Numbered from the stretch's first letter, positions 11,310 through 40,937 are shown. The stretch: 64,000 bases of DNA from Bacilli bacterium (GCA_041655535.1 JBBAFH010000004.1:4276-68275), one strand, 5' to 3'. The notes: generated from the letters alone by a model not told the origin. Numbers and translations: made by a program.

Positions 11310-11765
11310 ATGGATTTAGAAAAAATAATGAGTAAAGATTTAATTGTTGGAAGTGTTGATGATAAACTATCTGATATTGCATTATTAATGCAACAACGTG
11401 ATATAGGTTTTATGCCAATTGCTGAGGAAGATCAAATTGTTGGAGTTATAACTGATCGTGACATTGTCATAAATTGTTTAAGCAATAACGACACTGATTG
11501 TGAGGTTAAAGATTATATTACCAGAAACATTATTTCAATTGATATTAATGATAGTATTGAAGATGCAATTGAAATAATGGGTGATGAAAAGATTAAACGA
11601 TTATTAGTAAGTAATGATGGTAATCTAGTAGGAATTATCTCTTTATCGGATATAATAACTACTAATATTGATAATCAGATTATAGTTGATAATTTAAAAA
11701 AACTTTGGAAAATTGATAAAAATACTGACCACTTAAATCCCAAAGTTGATGAATTTAAACTATAA
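11310..11765 (+). CDS. CBS domain-containing protein
   Basis: A tandem CBS pair (IVGVITDRDIV...LVGIISLSDII). The start is chosen at an ATG with an upstream AAGGGTGA ribosome-binding site. Confidence 0.75.
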   Translation: MDLEKIMSKDLIVGSVDDKLSDIALLMQQRDIGFMPIAEEDQIVGVITDRDIVINCLSNNDTDCEVKDYITRNIISIDINDSIEDAIEIMGDEKIKRLLVSNDGNLVGIISLSDIITTNIDNQIIVDNLKKLWKIDKNTDHLNPKVDEFKL

Positions 11766-11836
11766 AAATGAGGCTATTATAATACAAATATAAAAAAGCA
11801 AACACCTTTGTGTTTACTTTTTATTATAATTTCATT

Positions 11837-12262
11837 TTACTTTTGTTTTTTTTCTTTATCTGTTTCTTCAAGTTTTGACAAGATTTCTTTGGTTACTTTA
11901 ATTGAATTTTCACGAATTGAATTAGCCATGTTTTCAAAAACAGGAGTACCTTTTTCAACTGTATATTCAACTAATTCTTCAACCATGTCTTGAATATCTT
12001 TAGCTTTTTTCTTGGCAATCTTTAACATTTTTTCTTTATCAAGATCTTCTAATTCCATTTTAATTTCAAAAATTCTTGTTTCAATATTTTCACGAACTTC
12101 ATCCATATCAACTTCTTTTAATTTTTCTAAAAAATCTTCAATCGCAATTTTTAAATCATTACGAGTTTCACTACCTTTTTTAGGTGCGAACAAAACCCCT
12201 AATCCAGCACCTACTAAAGCACCAGTTAAAAATTTACCAAAACCACTTTTCTTTTTACTCAT
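11837..12262 (-). CDS. ytxH: YtxH-like protein (general stress / DUF948-associated)
   Basis: MSKKKSGFGKFLTGALVGAGLGVLFAPKKGSETR is the YtxH signature, followed by a coiled-coil tail. Confidence 0.75.
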   Translation of the reverse strand: MSKKKSGFGKFLTGALVGAGLGVLFAPKKGSETRNDLKIAIEDFLEKLKEVDMDEVRENIETRIFEIKMELEDLDKEKMLKIAKKKAKDIQDMVEELVEYTVEKGTPVFENMANSIRENSIKVTKEILSKLEETDKEKKQK

Positions 12263-12578
12263 TTTCTTCTTCTCCCTTCTTTTTCTTTTTTGATCTTTTT
12301 GTAAAAAATGATACAATTCCGTTACTAACAAAACTAATTATTTTATCATTAAACGAAACTAATGAATCGGTTGTCATATCAATAATGTCAAATAATCCAT
12401 TTAATCTACTAGCCTTATAATTTACATCATCAACTACCTTATTAACCTTCATAATTGTTTTAATAAGATTGATAATTAAAATAATTAATGCTATTAAAAG
12501 TATACTTAATAATGCATATATTATGAATGGAAAAATCGTATCTACCCAACTATTCACGAGTATCATCCCCTCTTTCAT
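12255..12578 (-). CDS. DUF948 family membrane protein (YtxG-like)
   Basis: Small protein with one TM helix and a coiled-coil tail, immediately upstream of the ytxH-like gene, as in the B. subtilis ytxGHJ cluster. The start codon is uncertain (TTG at 12590, ATG at 12578 or 12566, or GTG at 12557). Confidence 0.5.
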   Translation of the reverse strand: MKEGMILVNSWVDTIFPFIIYALLSILLIALIILIINLIKTIMKVNKVVDDVNYKASRLNGLFDIIDMTTDSLVSFNDKIISFVSNGIVSFFTKRSKKKKKGEEENE

Positions 12579-13963: not shown

Positions 13964-14040
13964 CTTACACCCCAGTACTTATATTATACCAAATTTCTAT
14001 ACTTATAAAAGTCTATTTCTTTTTATTTGTCAATTAGTTG

Positions 14041-14670
14041 TCACTTTTTAACTTCAACCTTATAAATAGTTGAACCAGTTTTAGAAAACTTCTCTTCATA
14101 TTCTGTCATAATATTAAGTTTATCATTATCTTTATGAAGATCTAACGATATTCGCTCTATTTTATACTCATTATCCGTTAAAGATTTTAAAGAATATTCA
14201 AATAGTTGGCGATTGTCTGTTTTCATGATAATTTTCTTGTCTGTTTTAAATATTGATTCATACTTTTTTAAAAACTCAGGGCTTGTTAAACGACGATGCG
14301 CATGTCTGTTTTTAGGCCATGGGTCAGAAAAGTTTAGATATAAAGTGTCTATTTCTTTATCAAAAATTTCTTCTACGTTAATTGCATCTTCATTTATAAA
14401 GCGAAGATTATCTAATTTTATATCATCTAATTTTTCAATTGCTCTTATTAATACACTATCATACTTTTCAATTCCAATATAATTGATATGAGGATTTAAT
14501 GTAGCATTTTCGATAATGAATTTACCCTTGCCAGTTCCAATTTCTAAATGAAGAGCATTATTGTTGTTAAATATCTTTTTATAATGTCCTTTATGTTTTC
14601 TAAAATCAATAATAACATAATTAGAATTATCAATTGTTTCTTTTGCACCTTTTACTTTTCTTAATCTCAT
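14041..14670 (-). CDS. trmB: tRNA (guanine46-N7)-methyltransferase
   Basis: Motifs LEIGTGKG and FSDPWPKNRHAHRRL. Confidence 0.9.
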   Translation of the reverse strand: MRLRKVKGAKETIDNSNYVIIDFRKHKGHYKKIFNNNNALHLEIGTGKGKFIIENATLNPHINYIGIEKYDSVLIRAIEKLDDIKLDNLRFINEDAINVEEIFDKEIDTLYLNFSDPWPKNRHAHRRLTSPEFLKKYESIFKTDKKIIMKTDNRQLFEYSLKSLTDNEYKIERISLDLHKDNDKLNIMTEYEEKFSKTGSTIYKVEVKK

Positions 14671-14725
14671 ATAATCTCCTCATAATAATTATAACATGCT
14701 TCCTAAAATATATAAATAAAAATAT

Positions 14726-15094
14726 TTACTCTTCTAAAATAAAGTCATAATCATACAAATTGCCATTTTTGGTAATTTTAACATAGGAATTGATAGAAAT
14801 TATCTTTTTTGTCTTGGGATTACGAATATCAACTTCAACATATCCTTGATCTGTTAATTCGCCTATGGTAATAGTTATTGCTTCGCCATCGTTTTTAGGC
14901 AACGAAAGTTTATTGTCAATAGCCCAATTTTTAGTGCTCAAAACAATATTGTTAACTTGATCATTATACATTTTATCTCTTGCTTCTTTAATATAATTAT
15001 CAACACCAGGATATGCTATTAAAAAGATTAGTCCTAGTAAAAGCATAACTGCCAATAATTCGATTAATGTAAATCCTAATTTATTTTTTTTCAT
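14726..15094 (-). CDS. ComGC-like type IV minor pilin / pseudopilin
   Basis: The N-terminus MKKNKLGFTLIELLAVMLLLG is a prepilin peptidase site (G|FTLIE). The start codon has a GAGGT ribosome-binding site. Confidence 0.75.
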   Translation of the reverse strand: MKKNKLGFTLIELLAVMLLLGLIFLIAYPGVDNYIKEARDKMYNDQVNNIVLSTKNWAIDNKLSLPKNDGEAITITIGELTDQGYVEVDIRNPKTKKIISINSYVKITKNGNLYDYDFILEE

Positions 15095-15116
15095 ATTTAA
15101 CCTCATTCTTTAAATA

Positions 15117-16613
15117 TTAAAACCCTGGAATAACTAAACGTGAACTGTCATCAATACCGCTACCACCGGCAATTCGATGAAACTGAAATGGACCACTAGA
15201 AACACTACCATCATTATCTCCACCACGTTCAAACCAAGAGTTTGTTGAATAAACGAAGTTGCTACTATCACCATACCAGCCTCTCGTTTCACCGGTAGCA
15301 TCGCCAAGTTTTCTTCTATCATATGCTAATTGATCATCATAAGTTGTACCGTAATTATATTTATCAATATATTTGCTCATAATGACACTATCAATAGTTG
15401 TCTGTTCAAAGCCTGATAATGATACATTTATTATCGTATTTCCACTTTCAAACATACCACCCATAACATATTCAAATGAGCCACCACTCATATCGTATAC
15501 ACCATATATATTACCTGTAGTACTCTGATTAGTATTAAAAACATAATCCCCATCACCAGTTAAGAATGATATGTTATCATTTATCGTAATTTCCTCAATT
15601 CTTCCATATTTACTATGACTTAAGTAAGCAACTGCTCCCCATTCCATATTTTTAATCATGTGAGCATCAGTATTAATTGGTAACCCATATACTGTTTCAT
15701 TGTTAAATAACTTAATTATTTCAAAAAATGAACTTGTCGTTTGTTCTTTAAGTGACGGATAATTTGGTTTAATTGAAGGTTCTGTAGGAGTACCCGTTAG
15801 TTCAAACTTACCTATCCAAAATCCTGATAACTCTCCACCAAAAGTAAAGGCTGGGTGTGTTAAATAAGTTCCGTTGGTATTTCCAGCTGATTTAGGGGTT
15901 TGTTTCTTTTCAAAAATTATTTCAATTTCTCTTGGTGAACTCACTTCAGAATTAACATTAAATAATTTATATTTATATCTCGGTATCCATACTAAATGCG
16001 CTAATACATCATCTTCTTTTATTTCTGTTTTAGGTTCTGCAGACATATAATAAGATCTTGTTGTTTCGGTAACTAATACAACATTCGCCCATTCCTGAAT
16101 TTTATAATCATACCATTTATCATAAGTATCGGCTTTTACCCATTTTGTTGCATCCCATATAACAGGAATCATACCTGGACTCAAAGTTGGCCTGTTAGCT
16201 CCCGTCTTATCAACATAAAATGGCTTAGTAATTTTTTCAACACATTCATTTTGATTAACAATTTTATAATCAATGTTAGTATTGCTTTCATAATTGACTT
16301 TAACCACTTTGGTTAGGTCAATTTTTTTACCAGTACTAATACTTGTTAAGTCATTACTTAATTCTCCTGTATCCACTAAAGTTTTTAATGAAACACAAAA
16401 AACGCTATCATTATTTAGGGGATAATTTTGTTGATTTTTTTCAAGATAAAAATCGGTCGAATTATAAATTAATTCTTTAGTAGCTTTATCTATATCTTCC
16501 GTACTTCTCTTTAATTGGTTAACGATCGGTGGAAAGGCTAACACGAGCAAGAGCCCGATCAAAAAAATTACTCCTAATACTTCAACTAATGTAAAACCAT
16601 TTTTCTTTAACAC
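15117..16613 (-). CDS. Large type IV pilin-like protein with a C-terminal FGE-sulfatase (SUMF1)-like domain, paralog 2 (GTG start)
   Basis: The N-terminus MLKKNGFTLVEVLGVIFLIGLL is a class III signal peptide. C-terminal motifs EWGAVAYLSHSKYG, GNIYGVYDMSGGSFEYVMG and WFERGG resemble the FGE-domain motifs (EWEYAAR, YGLYDMxGNVWEW, RGGSW). Confidence 0.7.
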   Translation of the reverse strand: MLKKNGFTLVEVLGVIFLIGLLLVLAFPPIVNQLKRSTEDIDKATKELIYNSTDFYLEKNQQNYPLNNDSVFCVSLKTLVDTGELSNDLTSISTGKKIDLTKVVKVNYESNTNIDYKIVNQNECVEKITKPFYVDKTGANRPTLSPGMIPVIWDATKWVKADTYDKWYDYKIQEWANVVLVTETTRSYYMSAEPKTEIKEDDVLAHLVWIPRYKYKLFNVNSEVSSPREIEIIFEKKQTPKSAGNTNGTYLTHPAFTFGGELSGFWIGKFELTGTPTEPSIKPNYPSLKEQTTSSFFEIIKLFNNETVYGLPINTDAHMIKNMEWGAVAYLSHSKYGRIEEITINDNISFLTGDGDYVFNTNQSTTGNIYGVYDMSGGSFEYVMGGMFESGNTIINVSLSGFEQTTIDSVIMSKYIDKYNYGTTYDDQLAYDRRKLGDATGETRGWYGDSSNFVYSTNSWFERGGDNDGSVSSGPFQFHRIAGGSGIDDSSRLVIPGF

Positions 16614-16636
16614 GTTACACCTACTCTCATAATATT

Positions 16637-16665
16637 ATTATACCTTTTAATCATCTTTTTGTAAA
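16637..16665 (-). promoter_or_regulatory. Sigma-A type promoter for pilin-FGE paralog 2
   Basis: -35 TTTACA, a 17-nt spacer, -10 TATAAT. This duplicates the promoter of paralog 1. Confidence 0.6.
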
Positions 16666-16692
16666 TTAAAAGGAAGTTATTTTCAAACTTCC
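16660..16692 (-). terminator. Intrinsic terminator after pilin-FGE paralog 1
   Basis: Hairpin GGAAGTT-N7-AACTTCC followed by a U-run on the minus-strand transcript. Confidence 0.55.
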
Positions 16693-16697
16693 TGTTT

Positions 16698-18251
16698 TTA
16701 TAATCCGGTTATTGTAAGGCGTGATCCGCGATAACTATCAATATGCCCTGGACTTTGATCAAATCCAAAAATTCCAATTCCTTCGCTTGTACTATGACTT
16801 AATTGTCCACCCCGATAGAACCATGAATTTGTCGTTGATAGAAAATTACTATAATTATCATACCACCCTCTTGTTTCACCAGTAGCATCACCAAGAATTC
16901 TTCTATCATATGCTAATTGATCATCTGAAGTTGTACCATAATTATATTTGTTTATATATTTATTCATATTTATATAATCTATTGTCTCTTGCGAAAATCC
17001 TGAAGACGATGTATTAATTGTTACATTTCCAATATTAAACATTGATCCCATAACATATTCAGTAGCTCCACCACTCATATCATAAACTCCATAAACATTT
17101 CCGGTTGTACTAGCCTCACCACCATTTAATGTATTATAAGCATGTTCGCAACCTGATGTTCTAATAACTTTAGCCGCTGTTCCAGCACAGCCAGTTATAA
17201 AAGTATTACTTGGATTCATCCAAATTTCTTCATTTTTACCATACTTACTATGGCTTAAATATGCGACTGCTCCCCATTCAATGTTTTTTATTAAATGAGC
17301 ATCTGATGTTTCGGGTAATCCATAAGGTATTACATTATTAAAATATTGTAACATTGAAAACATAGTACTTATGTTTTGACCTCTTAATGATTCTAAATTA
17401 GGTTTTATTGTAGGTAATACTTGTGTTCCAGTTGTTTCAAATTTTCCTATCCAAAAACCATCAATTTCCTTATCGTTATAAGTAAAGGCTGGGTGTGTTA
17501 AATAAGTACCATCCATTAACCCATTTGATTTCCCGCGGTTTGCCGGTTCGAAAACAACTTCTATTTCTTTTGGAGTTGATAAAGTTGCTTTAACATTAAA
17601 TAATTTGTATTTATACCTTGGTATCCAAACCAAATATGCCAAAATATCTTCTTCTTTTATATTTGTTCCTGATAAAGCATTTTTATAATCATCCCTTTTA
17701 GTATCGGTGACTAATACAACATTCGCCCATTCCAAGTTAGTATAATTATACCATTCTTGACTAGTATCTGCTTTAACCAGTTCTGAACCATGCCATTTAA
17801 CAGCTATCATTCCGCCAGTCAACCTCGGTTTAGAAGCACCTGATTTATCAGCATATCCTGGCTTTTGAATTTTTTCTTGACAGTTATTTTCATCCACAAT
17901 GCTGTAATCAATGTTAGCAGCATTCTCAATTTCTGCTTTGACTATTTTAGATAAATTCACTTTTTTTAATGAACTCGTATTTGTAATATTCTTATCTAAA
18001 TCACCGCTATTAACTAATTCTTGTAGAGGAATACAAAAAACACTTCCCTTAACAATTGGATAGTCATTAACTTTTTTATCTAGATAACTACTAGTAGCGG
18101 TATATATTAAGTTTTCGGTTGCTTTATCAATATCCTTACTAGATTCTCTAATTTGATTCATAATTGGTGGGAATGATAATAATAACAATATCCCAATAAG
18201 TAAAATAACGCCTAGTATTTCAACTAACGTAAATCCATTTTTCTTTAACAT
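16698..18251 (-). CDS. Large type IV pilin-like protein with a C-terminal FGE-sulfatase (SUMF1)-like domain, paralog 1
   Basis: The N-terminus MLKKNGFTLVEILGVILLIGILL is followed by conserved blocks shared with paralog 2 (AYLVWIPRYKYKLFNV, EWGAVAYLSHSKYG, GNVYGVYDMSGG, QLAYDRRILGDATGETRGWY). Confidence 0.7.
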   Translation of the reverse strand: MLKKNGFTLVEILGVILLIGILLLLSFPPIMNQIRESSKDIDKATENLIYTATSSYLDKKVNDYPIVKGSVFCIPLQELVNSGDLDKNITNTSSLKKVNLSKIVKAEIENAANIDYSIVDENNCQEKIQKPGYADKSGASKPRLTGGMIAVKWHGSELVKADTSQEWYNYTNLEWANVVLVTDTKRDDYKNALSGTNIKEEDILAYLVWIPRYKYKLFNVKATLSTPKEIEVVFEPANRGKSNGLMDGTYLTHPAFTYNDKEIDGFWIGKFETTGTQVLPTIKPNLESLRGQNISTMFSMLQYFNNVIPYGLPETSDAHLIKNIEWGAVAYLSHSKYGKNEEIWMNPSNTFITGCAGTAAKVIRTSGCEHAYNTLNGGEASTTGNVYGVYDMSGGATEYVMGSMFNIGNVTINTSSSGFSQETIDYINMNKYINKYNYGTTSDDQLAYDRRILGDATGETRGWYDNYSNFLSTTNSWFYRGGQLSHSTSEGIGIFGFDQSPGHIDSYRGSRLTITGL

Positions 18252-18273
18252 GGTGCACCTACCTTATATCTTT

Positions 18274-18302
18274 ATTATACCTTTTAATAATTACTTTGTA
18301 AA
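18274..18302 (-). promoter_or_regulatory. Sigma-A type promoter for pilin-FGE paralog 1
   Basis: -35 TTTACA, a 17-nt spacer, -10 TATAAT, then the ribosome-binding site AAGGTAGGTG. Confidence 0.6.
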
Positions 18303-18316
18303 TTAAAAAAAAACAA

Positions 18317-18508
18317 CTAGTTAGTTGCTTCTTCTTTTTTGACGATTTCTTCTTTTCCTTTGTAATTTCCACATTCAGAACATACACGATGTGGTCTTAT
18401 ATCAGCACCACATTTTGGGCATTTAGTTGTTTGATTTTCACTAATTTTATAATGTGTACGACGCATTCTTTTGCTTGTCTTACTTGTTTTTCTAAATGGT
18501 ACAGCCAT
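18317..18508 (-). CDS. rpmF: 50S ribosomal protein L32
   Basis: [22 protein letters not shown] with a CxxC...CxxC zinc ribbon. Confidence 0.9.
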
Positions 18509-18523
18509 GTTAACACCTCTTTC

Positions 18524-19006
18524 TTATAATAATTCCTTTAACTTTTCCAATTCTGGATTAATCTCTTCGATTGGTTCCGTTTCGGTTATTAGTTTCCAAC
18601 CATTTCCTTCTGCTTGATAGTCTCTGGCCTTTTCACTTACAACCTTCATGGGAATTTCAACTAATATATTTTCCCATATTATTGGAAAAATATCAATAGT
18701 ATTTTCACTCTTTTTAACAATCTCACTGATTTCTTTAATAATTTCGCCTAGTTTTTCGTCTATTGTTACTTTAAATGGGTAGTTTACCGGTTCTAAAGTT
18801 AGTGAACATCTAAGAACCATAACACCAGTAATTTCCATTTTAACATTATAATCAATTGATTGTTTAGTAATAATACCGTTTACTTTTACATCTTTTAGTT
18901 CAATCAAATCAGTATTATTTAACTGTTCTTCAGTAAATTCTAAATGCTCATCAATTATAACTTCTTCATCTATATCATTATTCAATCTTGTTAAATCAAT
19001 ATTCAT
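18524..19006 (-). CDS. yceD: YceD/DUF177 family protein (23S rRNA accumulation protein)
   Basis: 160-aa acidic protein immediately upstream of rpmF (a conserved gene pair). Confidence 0.7.
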   Translation of the reverse strand: MNIDLTRLNNDIDEEVIIDEHLEFTEEQLNNTDLIELKDVKVNGIITKQSIDYNVKMEITGVMVLRCSLTLEPVNYPFKVTIDEKLGEIIKEISEIVKKSENTIDIFPIIWENILVEIPMKVVSEKARDYQAEGNGWKLITETEPIEEINPELEKLKELL

Positions 19007-19109
19007 TATTCACCTTCTCGCACTATGATTATACCTTTTTTTATTGAAAATAGCAATCAATATCGTTTGAAAAATTGATTAGTTGTGCTAAAATATAAGT
19101 GGTGATTAA

Positions 19110-20261
19110 ATGAAAAGTGTTGGAATAATTTGTGAATATAATCCTTTTCATAATGGGCATCTATATCATCTAAATAAAGTAAAAGAATTATACCCAGATT
19201 TTACGATTATTTTAGTTATGAGCGGGAACTTTCTCCAAAGAGGAGAATCAAGCATTATTGATAAGTGGTCCAAAACAAAGATTGCATTAGAGCATGGGAT
19301 TGATTTAGTTGTTGAACTACCTTATGCTTTTTCAAGTCAAAGTGCGGATCTTTTTGCAAGAGGTAGTATTGAGTTATTAGATCATCTTAAAGTTGATGCA
19401 ATCGTCTTTGGAAGTGAAACTAATGATATCGATCTTTTAACAAAAATAGCTGATTTAAGTATGTCAGATAACTTTAACGAGTCCGTAAAATCATATATGG
19501 ATTTAGGTTTTAGTTATCCGAAAGCATTATCAGAAGCAATAAATAAAACAACAGGCGACAATGTTGACACTCCAAATGATATATTAGGTATTAGTTATAT
19601 TAAAGAATTAAAACGACTTAATAGTTCAATAAAACCAGTAACTATTAAAAGAACAAATAATTATCATTCACTTGAATTAAACAATGATATTGTTAGTGCG
19701 AGCAGCATTAGAAAGGCCCTTTTAGACGGTATTGATGTTATCAATTATGTTCCTGAAAATTCTTATAAATACTTAAAAAAAGAATTACACTTTATTGACA
19801 ATTACTTTTCGCTTCTAAAGTATAAAATATTGTCGGAAATTGACACGTTAAATGTTTATCAAACAGTTGATGAAGGAATTGAGAATAGAATTAAAAAATA
19901 TATTATTCATTCTAAATCATTAGATGAATTAATAATGAACATTAAAACTAAAAGGTATACTTACAATAAAATAAGAAGAATGCTTACTCATATTTTATGT
20001 AACTTTACAAAAGAAGAAGCAAATAATTTTGAGCACATAGAGTACGTTAGAGTGTTAGGTTTTACAAATAATGGCAAACAATATTTAAGTAAAATAAAAA
20101 AGGACTTACTAATTCCTTTAATAACTAATTACTCAAAACTTAACAATAAGATGCTTGATTTAGAGTTTCGTGTTACTTGTGTTTATGCATCAATATTAAA
20201 TGAAAAAGATAAAATTAACCTTATCGAGAGTGAATATAAAAACCACCCTTTGATAAAATAA
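19110..20261 (+). CDS. tmcAL: tRNA(Met) cytidine acetate ligase (YlbM/TmcAL nucleotidyltransferase)
   Basis: GIICEYNPFHNGHLYH nucleotidyltransferase motif, typical of the DUF795 family. Confidence 0.75.
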   Translation: MKSVGIICEYNPFHNGHLYHLNKVKELYPDFTIILVMSGNFLQRGESSIIDKWSKTKIALEHGIDLVVELPYAFSSQSADLFARGSIELLDHLKVDAIVFGSETNDIDLLTKIADLSMSDNFNESVKSYMDLGFSYPKALSEAINKTTGDNVDTPNDILGISYIKELKRLNSSIKPVTIKRTNNYHSLELNNDIVSASSIRKALLDGIDVINYVPENSYKYLKKELHFIDNYFSLLKYKILSEIDTLNVYQTVDEGIENRIKKYIIHSKSLDELIMNIKTKRYTYNKIRRMLTHILCNFTKEEANNFEHIEYVRVLGFTNNGKQYLSKIKKDLLIPLITNYSKLNNKMLDLEFRVTCVYASILNEKDKINLIESEYKNHPLIK

Positions 20262-38667: not shown

Positions 38668-38707
38668 ACCCCATTGTAATTAGTAATGATTATAATGGGG
38701 TAGCACT
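38668..38707 (+). repeat. Perfect 11-bp stem hairpin (GCTACCCCATT...AATGGGGTAGC) immediately 3' of tRNA-Gly
   Basis: An inverted repeat with an 18-nt loop and no U-run. It is either the tRNA terminator or a remnant of the attachment site. Confidence 0.5.
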
Positions 38708-38763
38708 TAAAATAAAGAAAACAGTTAGATAAAAGGTTGTTCCTAGAAAGGAGCAACTTTTTT

Positions 38764-39072
38764 ATGTTAGAATTTAAAACAATAAGGTACTTAAAAGCCG
38801 ATAAAGACTTTTTAAAGTTTATTGGTAAAGATAATCAAATACAATTAAAAGCAAGTGATGGTGTGATATTAGAGATTAAAAAAACTAATATTAAAACGAT
38901 TAAACCCATTATTTATGAAATAGTTGATTTAGATTTAATTATCTACCATTATGCAAGTGATAACTTAAATAATAAAAGATATTACATACCAAATACTAAA
39001 AAATCTTATACTTTAAATCAACTTAAAGAGTTGATTAGAAATATGCTAACTACAAAAATCGTTGACAAATAA
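38764..39072 (+). CDS. Hypothetical small protein upstream of the serine recombinase (candidate recombination directionality factor)
   Basis: 102 aa; AGGAG ribosome-binding site; first gene inside the left end of the element. Confidence 0.4.
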   Translation: MLEFKTIRYLKADKDFLKFIGKDNQIQLKASDGVILEIKKTNIKTIKPIIYEIVDLDLIIYHYASDNLNNKRYYIPNTKKSYTLNQLKELIRNMLTTKIVDK

Positions 39073-39129
39073 AAATTTTAGTCTATAATAAAGGGCAATT
39101 AATTTATATTTGGTCAAAGGCGAAGTAGT

Positions 39130-40929
39130 ATGTATAACCTTATTACTTTGCCTTTTTTGTATAGAAAGGGAGATGGTAGATTGAACAAACGAGTTGGGAT
39201 ATATGTTAGAGTTAGTACGGAAGAACAAAGAGATTATGGTTATTCAATTGATGGACAAATTAGAGAATTAAATGATTATTGTAAAAAACAAAATTATGTA
39301 ATTGTTGATATTTATAATGATGCAGGACATAGTGCCAAAGATTTAAAACGACCAAATATGGAACGAATGCTTGAAGATATTAAAAATGGTGTCCTTGATA
39401 TTGTTGTAGCAGTCAAAGTTGATAGATTAACTCGTGAAGGTTATGATGGACATTGGTTTTTAAAATATTGTAAGGAACATAATTGTATGATAGATTTACT
39501 TTATGAAAATTATGATATAAATACACCTAATGGCGAGATGTTATATGGTATGAATGTATTATTTGCTCAAAGAGAAAGACGAGAAATCGCAAGTAGAACA
39601 AAGCGTGGTATGGAAGAAGCCGTAAAGCAAGGAAAATACCCTAATAAAGCCCCGTATGGTTACATTAAAGATGAAAATGGTATATTGATACCAAATCCTA
39701 TTACTTCGCTTGTAGTAAAAGATATTTATGATATGTATTTAAATGGTATGTCTAGTGTTGATATTATGGAAAAACTTAAAAATGATAATAGATATACTGA
39801 TTATTTTAATGTAAGACCACAAACAATAATTGGAATAATTAAAAATTCAGTATATAAAGGCGATTTAATATGGGGACATACTAAACGAAAAAAAGAAGAT
39901 GTTATTTATATCGAAAATCATCATATACCACTTGTTACAAAAGAAGTATGGGAAAAAGCCCAAGACCAAATTATTAAAAATACTAATGGTGGTTATGGTG
40001 AGAAAATTCATATTTTTAGGGGAATTATTAAATGTCCACATTGTCATAAGCCAATGAGTAATTATTTTTCTAAAAAAAGAAAAGGTAAAAGAATCAAAAA
40101 TACTTATTATCTTATTTGCCATAATAGAGAATGTGAAGATTATAAAAAATTATATAATACTGGTAAAATAGAAAAAGAACTATTACCACTATTACAAGAT
40201 TTATGTGTCTTTTCAATATTAAATGATAATATCATAAACATACCTAATTTAAAAGATAAAAATGAATTATTATCACTTGAAAAAGCACTTGATGAATTAA
40301 TTAAAAAAGAAAATAATATCATAAGTTTATTTGCTGATAATCGTTTAAACAAACAATTATTATATAACAAGATAAATCAAATAATTAAAGAACGAGAAAT
40401 TATAAACAATAAAATAGAAAAATTAAAAGATGAAAAACTGTTTAGATATGATGATGACATACAAGAATTATTTGATAAAAGAGAACAACAACCTAATTGT
40501 GAAATATTAAATATATGGAATATCTTAACTAGAGAAGCCAAGCGAGATATAATTCAAAAATATGTAAAAGAAATAGAAGTTAAAATAGATAACAACTATG
40601 ATATAACTATTGAAAAAGTAATATTCTATAATGACTTTTTACAAAATGACTTATTTAGTTTTAGTGAATATCTAATAGAAAAAGCCAATGAACGAAATAA
40701 TACTTTTGAAATTAAAGGAATATATGAAGAAATAGAATTTAATGAGTTAATGAAAAAATTAAAACCAAAAGCCATATTTAATTTCGATGAAATAGTTAAA
40801 ACGAGAAATTATGAATATGAAAACCAAATGACCGAGTCAGAAAAAATAAAGAGTAATAAAACTTTGTTTATATATGGAATTAAAGAAAATGAAGAAATGA
40901 ACAACTTTAAAATAGTTGTTCCAAGTTAG
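39130..40929 (+). CDS. Large serine recombinase (resolvase domain, recombinase domain, zinc ribbon, coiled coil)
   Basis: GIYVRVSTEEQ catalytic Ser motif, a DRLTR motif, a zinc ribbon CPHCHKPMS...CHNREC, and a C-terminal coiled coil. An alternative TTG start lies at 39181. Confidence 0.85.
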   Translation: MYNLITLPFLYRKGDGRLNKRVGIYVRVSTEEQRDYGYSIDGQIRELNDYCKKQNYVIVDIYNDAGHSAKDLKRPNMERMLEDIKNGVLDIVVAVKVDRLTREGYDGHWFLKYCKEHNCMIDLLYENYDINTPNGEMLYGMNVLFAQRERREIASRTKRGMEEAVKQGKYPNKAPYGYIKDENGILIPNPITSLVVKDIYDMYLNGMSSVDIMEKLKNDNRYTDYFNVRPQTIIGIIKNSVYKGDLIWGHTKRKKEDVIYIENHHIPLVTKEVWEKAQDQIIKNTNGGYGEKIHIFRGIIKCPHCHKPMSNYFSKKRKGKRIKNTYYLICHNRECEDYKKLYNTGKIEKELLPLLQDLCVFSILNDNIINIPNLKDKNELLSLEKALDELIKKENNIISLFADNRLNKQLLYNKINQIIKEREIINNKIEKLKDEKLFRYDDDIQELFDKREQQPNCEILNIWNILTREAKRDIIQKYVKEIEVKIDNNYDITIEKVIFYNDFLQNDLFSFSEYLIEKANERNNTFEIKGIYEEIEFNELMKKLKPKAIFNFDEIVKTRNYEYENQMTESEKIKSNKTLFIYGIKENEEMNNFKIVVPS

Positions 40930-40937
40930 GTAAATAT

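Follow-up and report, generated by a model that had tools for sequence, protein, structure and literature searches.

What can a bacterium do with a protein that begins as a type IV prepilin and ends in a large domain resembling the formylglycine-generating enzyme (FGE)? The question is raised by a locus at positions 14726-18302 of a 64,000-nucleotide stretch of DNA from an uncultured, gut-type Bacilli bacterium (GCA_041655535.1, JBBAFH010000004.1:4276-68275; this whole stretch is referred to below as the window), where two large paralogous genes of this kind and a small pilin gene are situated between rpmF and trmB. We consider it rather probable that the locus codes for two diverged modular type IV (pre)pilins carrying lectin-fold heads of fixed specificity, together with a headless pilin, and that their assembly machinery is encoded elsewhere. 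Relatives of these genes are hypermutated by diversity-generating retroelements (DGRs), and no DGR activity is seen in the window copies. This link to DGRs, absent from the initial annotation, is our principal finding.

Organisation of the locus

The genes and the predicted parts of their products are as follows.

16698-18251, minus strand: paralog 1, 517 residues, leader MLKKNG/FTLVE
Parts of paralog 1: class III signal, residues 1-6; pilin module, residues about 7-128 (Cys73/Cys124); linker; FGE-subtype C-type lectin (CLec) module, residues about 140-517
15117-16613, minus strand: paralog 2, 498 residues, GTG start, leader and architecture as in paralog 1, lectin module without Cys
14726-15094, minus strand: small "headless" pilin, 122 residues, MKKNKLG/FTLIE, with the ATG at 15094 as the likelier start

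All three genes are intact and lie on the minus strand, and the sequence features listed in the initial annotation were all found in their places. The two large genes are indeed tandem paralogs, 57% identical over the full length. The open reading frame of the small pilin extends at its fullest over 14726-15106, but the start at 15094 agrees with the public record of the metagenome-assembled genome (MAG) to which the window belongs (GCA_964587455.1, contig CAZPLC010000005.1). This start is located 22 nt past the stop codon of paralog 2 and is preceded by its own GAGG. The small gene is probably co-transcribed with paralog 2; the translational coupling that had been proposed for the pair is not shown by this arrangement. 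Pfam assigns the flanking genes to rpmF (18317-18508) and yceD on one side and trmB (14041-14670) on the other.

The prepilin-type N-termini claimed earlier are present in all three proteins: each has a short basic leader ending in Gly, Phe at +1, Glu at +5 and about 20 hydrophobic residues. TIGR02532 scores above its cutoff of 16.3 bits in the two large proteins (17.3 and 17.5) and in the small pilin (27.5), while PF07963 reaches 21.0, 22.4 and 30.4 bits, respectively, at or above the cutoff of 21.2. Beyond the N-terminal pilin part, a Pfam and NCBIfam search with the three proteins found no matches, and single-sequence phmmer against PDB returned only pilin N-termini. The host genome is AT-rich (about 27% GC). 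Among the proteins encoded in the window are a penicillin-binding protein, YunB, an LtaS-like protein and a LytR-CpsA-Psr (LCP) protein, which makes the host a walled monoderm.

Structure of the pilin module and the head

An AlphaFold (AF2) model, calculated from an alignment of 60 sequences, has high confidence (pLDDT 91.8, pTM 0.79) and would place the pilin at about residues 1-128 and the head at about 140-517. In the modelled pilin part an extended N-terminal helix is packed on a small beta-sheet, as in the pilin fold, and the family profile matches solved pilins at E 1e-7 to 1e-4. The module preserves Gly-1, Phe+1, Glu+5, a helix of about 50 residues, the beta-sheet and a conserved Cys pair. 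A short linker connects it to a functional module that is not specific to pili, which is the composition of a modular pilin.

Fold searches with the head gave exclusively C-type-lectin-fold proteins of the FGE subtype. Foldseek placed TaqVP, the DGR variable protein of Thermus aquaticus, first (E 4.7e-10), followed by Mtd, PvdO, TvpA and FGE. TaqVP is also the sole PDB sequence matched by a profile of the C-terminal module (E 8.4e-4, with motifs in common) and is thereby the top match both by structure and by sequence. The nearest relatives of the head are DGR variable proteins, not enzymes. The head comprises about 380 residues, the C-terminal 40 or so of which form the predicted binding surface.

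Proposed display of the heads on the cell surface

We propose the following course of events. Each large gene would be transcribed from its own sigma-70-type promoter and the small pilin gene together with paralog 2. A prepilin peptidase encoded elsewhere would cleave the precursors after Gly6, permitting the hydrophobic helix to dock the protein into a type IV filament. Given the bulk of the head, a position at the tip or as a rare subunit is the most likely, and the pilin without a head could serve as an adaptor or a core subunit. The lectin-fold head would then bind an external ligand, which may be a glycan, a protein or a cell surface, and two paralogs would provide two specificities.

Several observations weigh against this proposal. 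Pfam analysis of about 40 open reading frames found no prepilin peptidase, assembly ATPase or platform gene in the 64-kb window, so the absence of adjacent assembly genes remarked on initially extends to the whole stretch. Likewise, screens for Walker-A and A24 motifs found no type IV pilus machinery near about 85 related loci (about 1.4 Mb). The sole match of these screens, in locus L021, was rejected as an ABC-transporter-like pair. As the search was limited to the window and the related loci and the machinery was not found, filament assembly is unproven. Some family members carry the same head on degenerate pilin-like helices without Glu5 or on plain membrane anchors, so a pilus is not a strict requirement for the head. 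No family member has a described ligand, and the promoters and the terminator of the locus are putative, being matches to consensus. Finally, the head contains conserved motifs (VWIPRYKY, LTHPAF, GFWIGKFE and GDATGETRGW, at residues 208-275 and 453-463 of paralog 1, or about 17427-17630 and 16863-16895), and the polar ones of its N-terminal half (LTHPAF, GFWIGKFE, GDATGETRGW) could mark a constant, possibly catalytic, site. Conservation of the motifs far exceeds what the scaffold of a variable surface needs; their role may be structural, metal-binding or that of a constant binding site.

The most serious competitor, though we regard it as less likely, is that the proteins are membrane-anchored surface receptors which never polymerise, the class III signal and the helix being nothing but a device for secretion and anchoring. 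In archaea, sugar-binding proteins with pilin-type signals form the "bindosome". The lack of filament machinery near the 85 or so loci, the interchangeability of the anchor implied by heads on degenerate or plain transmembrane anchors, and the scattering of family genes singly among housekeeping genes all agree with such a role. A pilin-type anchor could replace sortase-based display in these Bacilli lineages. In this connection the orders RFN20 and ML615J-28 were reported to be without sortases (PMC10868615), which perhaps favours anchoring as well, although membership of the host in either order is not established. What speaks for a polymer is that the complete pilin module has been kept and that a headless pilin paralog is retained beside the large genes under purifying selection, which makes best sense if the subunits polymerise. 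Pilin genes situated apart from the machinery are, moreover, common in monoderms. We retain the modular pilin as the preferred interpretation. The family may explain how sortase-poor, uncultured gut Bacilli display adhesins.

Relation to formylglycine-generating enzymes

The FGE-sulfatase domain initially assigned to the large proteins stands as far as the fold is concerned: both the confident AlphaFold model and the family profile point to the FGE subtype of the C-type lectin fold. The assignment to PF03781 does not, as neither window protein matches this family even at E<=1. Could the proteins still be surface-anchored FGE-like enzymes, either formylglycine-generating or performing other chemistry of the oxidase or sulfoxide synthase type? 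Weak, sub-threshold PF03781 matches do occur in 22 of 60 relatives (best E 3.7e-4), and five polar residues of paralog 1 (R212, H253, K270, D391 and E459) are invariant. FGE, however, requires its two active-site cysteines. Paralog 1 has cysteines at positions 73, 124, 355 and 368, the latter two within an insert and none in the C-terminal 150 residues, whereas paralog 2 has only those at 73 and 124, that is, none in the head. The catalytic cysteine pair is absent from the RGG...SRL segment of both paralogs (the FGE catalytic site is discussed in PMC6328139). The closest structure is, by a wide margin, a non-enzymatic variable protein. Besides, the family varies most in the segment lying over the FGE active site, and in relatives this segment is hypermutated by DGRs, which is incompatible with a conserved active site. 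Enzymatic function of this kind is therefore very improbable, and in genome annotation the FGE-like motif should not be taken here as a sign of sulfatase-maturation chemistry.

Diversification in related genomes

The family was surveyed for DGRs in 80 loci fetched from GTDB. Eight of these contain, about 1.3 kb downstream of a family gene, a reverse transcriptase (RT) of approximately 350 residues with the DGR motifs IGNYTSQ and YMDD. A pair of template repeat (TR) and variable region (VR) was found in ten loci, the eight with RT and two more. The VR makes up the final 60-160 nt of the family gene, and its near-copy, the TR, is located 100-800 bp downstream. Mismatches between the two fall almost entirely at TR adenines (15/15, 16/16, 19/21, 15/17, 15/16, 6/6, 16/17, 11/12, 18/20 and 10/10 in the ten pairs), and at the variable sites the TR encodes Asn, e.g., RVNRGGNANNGSNAGLFNVNRNTGNAWTNNGSRAVVVAG. 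In three related loci the TRs are near-identical while the VRs differ, and downstream of each VR there is a small GC-rich hairpin. Six of eight examined DGR targets have the prepilin N-terminus GFTLIELL.

According to Pfam, the cassette is arranged as target (N_methyl), TR, a MutS-domain-I protein, bAvd (PF22296) and RVT_1; bAvd and RT are present in all six DGR loci scanned. The protein of about 123 residues encoded between TR and bAvd (MutS domain I, PF01624, E ~1e-9; L046 12219-12596, L034 7487-7858, L052 12292-12660) is a putative accessory protein.

The last 120 nt of the DGR-linked genes have 57% GC compared to 34% in the gene body. Across the family the GC content of the 3' end is bimodal, and 24 further genes without a TR in the fetched flank fall into the high mode. 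Within single MAGs, several genes are identical in their framework nucleotides and 3' ends but not in the variable codons (L050, L055, L058, L063 and L066 of CAKOLI01; L031 and L034 of CALVRW01), so that a single DGR apparently acts on more than one pilin gene, some of them at a distance. Static paralogs, AT-rich but with an unchanged amino acid framework, coexist with them in those genomes. Two tandem family genes of locus L075 (9485-11179 and 11358-12884) share 203-nt 3' ends which are 99% identical (GC about 0.60); they may have been made alike by recent gene conversion, or one cDNA may have been retrohomed into both.

The segments of the window genes that are equivalent to VRs are located as follows.

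16713-16823, minus strand: VR-equivalent segment of paralog 1, residues 477-513, WFYRGG...GSRLT, predicted ligand-binding surface
15132-15236, minus strand: VR-equivalent segment of paralog 2, residues 460-494, WFERGGDNDGSVSSGPFQFHRIAGGSGIDDSSRLV

Both align column by column with the VR and TR of DGR-linked relatives, paralog 2 with the TR peptide of L016. The columns in which TRs encode Asn are the most variable of the whole family (3.14 vs 1.63 bits, p 5e-6) and are framed by the invariant W477, R480, G481, G493, F495, G502 and R511. Like DGR targets, the window proteins thus have a C-terminal CLec scaffold with the VR position at the extreme C-terminus.

Fixed state of the window copies

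Sensitive blastn with the locus found no TR in the whole 64-kb window. The only TR-like match to either gene was the other paralog, with mismatches unbiased as to base (G6 C5 A4 T6). RT and Avd genes were not found in the window either. Neither gene end has a GC-rich hairpin or a 3' end resembling an initiation of mutagenic homing (IMH) site: an AT-rich terminator-like hairpin follows one gene and nothing the other. The GC content of the VR-equivalent segments (0.40 in paralog 1 and 0.425 in paralog 2) belongs to the low mode, compared to 0.52-0.66 in true VRs.

A sister MAG, GCA_028706395.1, has the same three-gene arrangement with all genes intact, so the pseudogenisation in related strains considered at the outset is not seen there. 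The proteins of the sister genome are 90.3% (paralog 1), 84.3% (paralog 2) and 91.8% (small pilin) identical to those of the window, similar to the values for the neighbouring trmB (88.5%) and pyk (93.2%) products. In the VR-equivalent segments, synonymous differences are evenly distributed, with 8-9 in the last 18-37 codons (nine in the last 18 codons of paralog 2), which excludes homogenisation by a template. Non-synonymous change is mildly enriched near codons 441-480. Identity comparable to that of housekeeping neighbours, together with even synonymous change, indicates that the genes are conserved and neither pseudogenised nor hypervariable. As judged from these comparisons, the window copies are static: they keep the scaffold, differ from each other in the residues fixed at the variable positions, and evolve under ordinary purifying selection.

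It might still be asked whether the genes are active targets, diversified in trans as remote VRs by a DGR in another part of the genome. Such VRs do exist in the family (e.g., the VR of L031 relative to the TR of L034, and at least five VRs in one MAG), and the 64-kb window is the only visible part of this genome. The 3' end is also the most GC-rich part of each large gene, and in paralog 2 a few of the substitutions relative to the sister genome exchange Asn with Asp, His or Tyr at TR-Asn positions. Against this stand the synonymous differences, the low GC content and the lack of a GC-rich hairpin or IMH-like 3' end described above, as well as the recovery of identical protein sequences from independent samples. 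Taken together, these leave little chance for ongoing diversification, and we continue to regard the heads as having fixed specificity.

Size and distribution of the family

A full-length query matches upwards of 7,800 proteins at the level of 90% clusters, of which nearly all come from MAGs labelled "Bacilli bacterium", Mollicutes or Tenericutes. GTDB species representatives contain at least 590 loci, often several per genome. The head alone matches 3,549 clusters at 50% identity, 1,090 of these at E<=1e-30. The canonical class III N-terminus is present in 88 of the 120 closest relatives, and the rest have degenerate pilin-like helices or plain anchors. The common label [quoted passage not shown] therefore masks a large divergent FGE/CLec branch which is undetected by Pfam. 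The head also occurs without the pilin module in other proteins; P0121 (3713 residues), P0122 (4516 residues) and P0138 (4340 residues) have 5-9 lectin-fold modules each and no pilin N-terminus.

Origin as domesticated phage receptor-binding proteins, or as part of a prophage, is hardly credible: although the typical DGR CLec protein is a phage tail fibre (Mtd) and cellular DGR targets of Bacillota were reported to resemble phage receptor-binding proteins (bioRxiv 10.1101/2024.11.15.621889), 2.9 million viral contigs gave only six weak matches (26-34% identity) against the 590 or more cellular loci, the neighbours of the window genes are conserved housekeeping genes in conserved synteny, and no phage genes are located nearby. 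With just six weak viral loci, the idea of a phage-borne family was rejected.

Six loci (L006, L007, L011, L014, L028 and L062) are titled "uncultured Muribaculaceae" or "Ignavibacteriales" but contain AT-rich genes in Bacilli-type synteny (yceD-rpmF, SpoIIP); their taxonomy labels are probably wrong. In L005, a 532-kb metagenomic contig, a heliorhodopsin gene (11605-12378) lies directly downstream of a family pilin gene.

Comparison with known systems

Modular pilins with an effector module at the pilus tip are an established concept (PMC8179133). The combination found here, IPR012902-IPR005532, is listed for eight proteins in Dataset S1 of Raynaud et al. (2021) and not discussed there (PMC8179133). 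The initial statement that such pilins are not a described class is accordingly too strong, considering also the thousands of members in databases. Of similar build, and likewise from a monoderm, are PilB (von Willebrand factor A domain) and PilC (concanavalin A-like lectin) of Streptococcus sanguinis, in which a class III signal and a small pilin module are joined by a short linker to a bulky effector from a family not restricted to pili. They differ from the window proteins in the type of effector, which here is an FGE-type CLec, and in being encoded in a pil operon with the machinery, whereas the family genes are scattered (in the window, beside rpmF) and are known from sequences alone.

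Among fold relatives, TaqVP (PDB 5VF4; with TvpA and Mtd) is the closest known. It is a single domain without a pilin module and is about 17% identical to the window proteins; unlike TaqVP, these have no TR, RT or Avd in the window and no sign of diversification. FGE itself (human SUMF1 and SUMF2, bacterial FGE; PF03781) is set apart by the catalytic Cys pair and the Pfam match, both of which are missing here, and by the hypervariability, across our family, of the segment equivalent to its active site.

A similar solution was described for the type V pili of Bacteroides, whose tip adhesins are pilus subunits with a C-terminal DGR-diversified CLec head and whose genomes combine static and diversified paralogs; type IV pilins are not mentioned in that report (bioRxiv 10.1101/2024.11.15.621889). 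Type V pili are made from lipoprotein precursors by strand exchange, while the family described here has type IV class III signals and belongs to another phylum. A survey of DGRs lists "G-type pilin" among rare target domains as "scarcely represented" (PMC11661182). In the searchable literature we found neither a description of DGRs targeting type IV pilins as a family nor one of the pilin-lectin family itself. The window genes add new static members to an architecture that is catalogued but unstudied, and what is new at the level of the family is the link between type IV pilins and DGRs.

We tentatively suggest a broader picture, which is possible rather than probable: uncultured host-associated and environmental Bacilli (Mollicutes-like) may display DGR-type lectin heads on type IV filaments, one DGR hypermutating several pilin genes while other copies are frozen as adhesins of fixed specificity. 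If this is true, type IV pili would be the second class of pili, after type V of Bacteroides, with a tip specificity programmable by a retroelement, and the static pair linked to rpmF would be a conserved core set of adhesins. Type IV pili are among the most widespread surface machines of bacteria, and the origin of their binding specificity is an open question. The family, which numbers thousands of unstudied proteins, joins a pilin to the scaffold that DGRs use for very large binding diversity. Diversified and frozen copies are available in the same genomes, and a structural model with a defined predicted binding surface is ready, both of which are advantages for further study.

Genomic position and the small pilin

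The order yceD-rpmF-family gene recurs in at least eight other species, down to 40% identity, with a tandem pair in five of them. The position downstream of rpmF is therefore long-standing, and the insertion between rpmF and trmB, as the locus was first described, should not be read as a recent event. In L017, L022 and L024 the a-copies and the b-copies split into separate orthologous groups, which makes their duplication an old one. The duplication in the lineage of the window is more recent (58% identity).

None of the 81 other loci has a small downstream pilin gene, so the role of a conserved partner was rejected for it. A homolog search with the small pilin found only itself and its ortholog in the sister genome, and its best relative is the pilin module of the neighbouring paralogs. 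By sequence relationship, then, the small pilin is the paralogs' own pilin module copied without the head, and it is specific to this lineage. The label "ComGC-like", which it had been given, is not supported: with NF040999 (ComGC), whose cutoff is 75 bits, the small pilin reaches 22.9, in a match confined to the N-terminal helix.

Four tandem, closely similar pilin genes of about 150 codons were found among housekeeping genes in L062 (3078-5118), about 5 kb upstream of the family gene and with no assembly genes nearby. These are candidate major pilins.

Putative promoters and the duplicated segment

The predicted transcription signals of the locus are listed below.

18274-18302, minus strand: promoter-like site P1, TTTACA-17-TATAAT, 11 of 12 consensus positions, before paralog 1
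16637-16665, minus strand: promoter-like site P2, TTTACA-17-TATAAT, 11 of 12 consensus positions, before paralog 2, homologous to P1
16671-16693, minus strand: terminator-like hairpin with U-run, AGGAAGTT-N7-AACTTCCT, between paralog 1 and P2

P1 and P2 are the joint best sites in 14000-19200, each located 22-23 nt upstream of a start codon, which bears out the near-identical promoters noted for the two large genes. Promoter-like sites as such are not enriched in the region (29 observed vs 33.8 expected). The intergenic hairpin has an 8-bp stem and a 7-nt loop (-8.9 kcal/mol, z -2.99), and two of 200 shuffled sequences fold as well.

According to blastn, nucleotide homology between the paralogs reaches 18308 and 16671, respectively, and so includes the promoter. 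The hairpin lies outside this segment. Another, weaker hairpin is present after rpmF, and as it is unlike the intergenic one, the duplicated unit must have consisted of promoter and gene without the terminator. The initial proposal that a terminator-promoter-gene cassette was duplicated is therefore retained for its promoter and gene parts.

Elsewhere in the window, plus-strand genes at 38700-44300 form an AT-rich island (GC 0.21-0.27) within a mostly minus-strand region. The island contains a serine recombinase (Resolvase/Recombinase/Zn-ribbon) and a Mob_Pre relaxase, especially at 39130-40929 and 40938-42179, as well as a DUF7689 protein and small open reading frames, and is probably an integrated mobilisable element.

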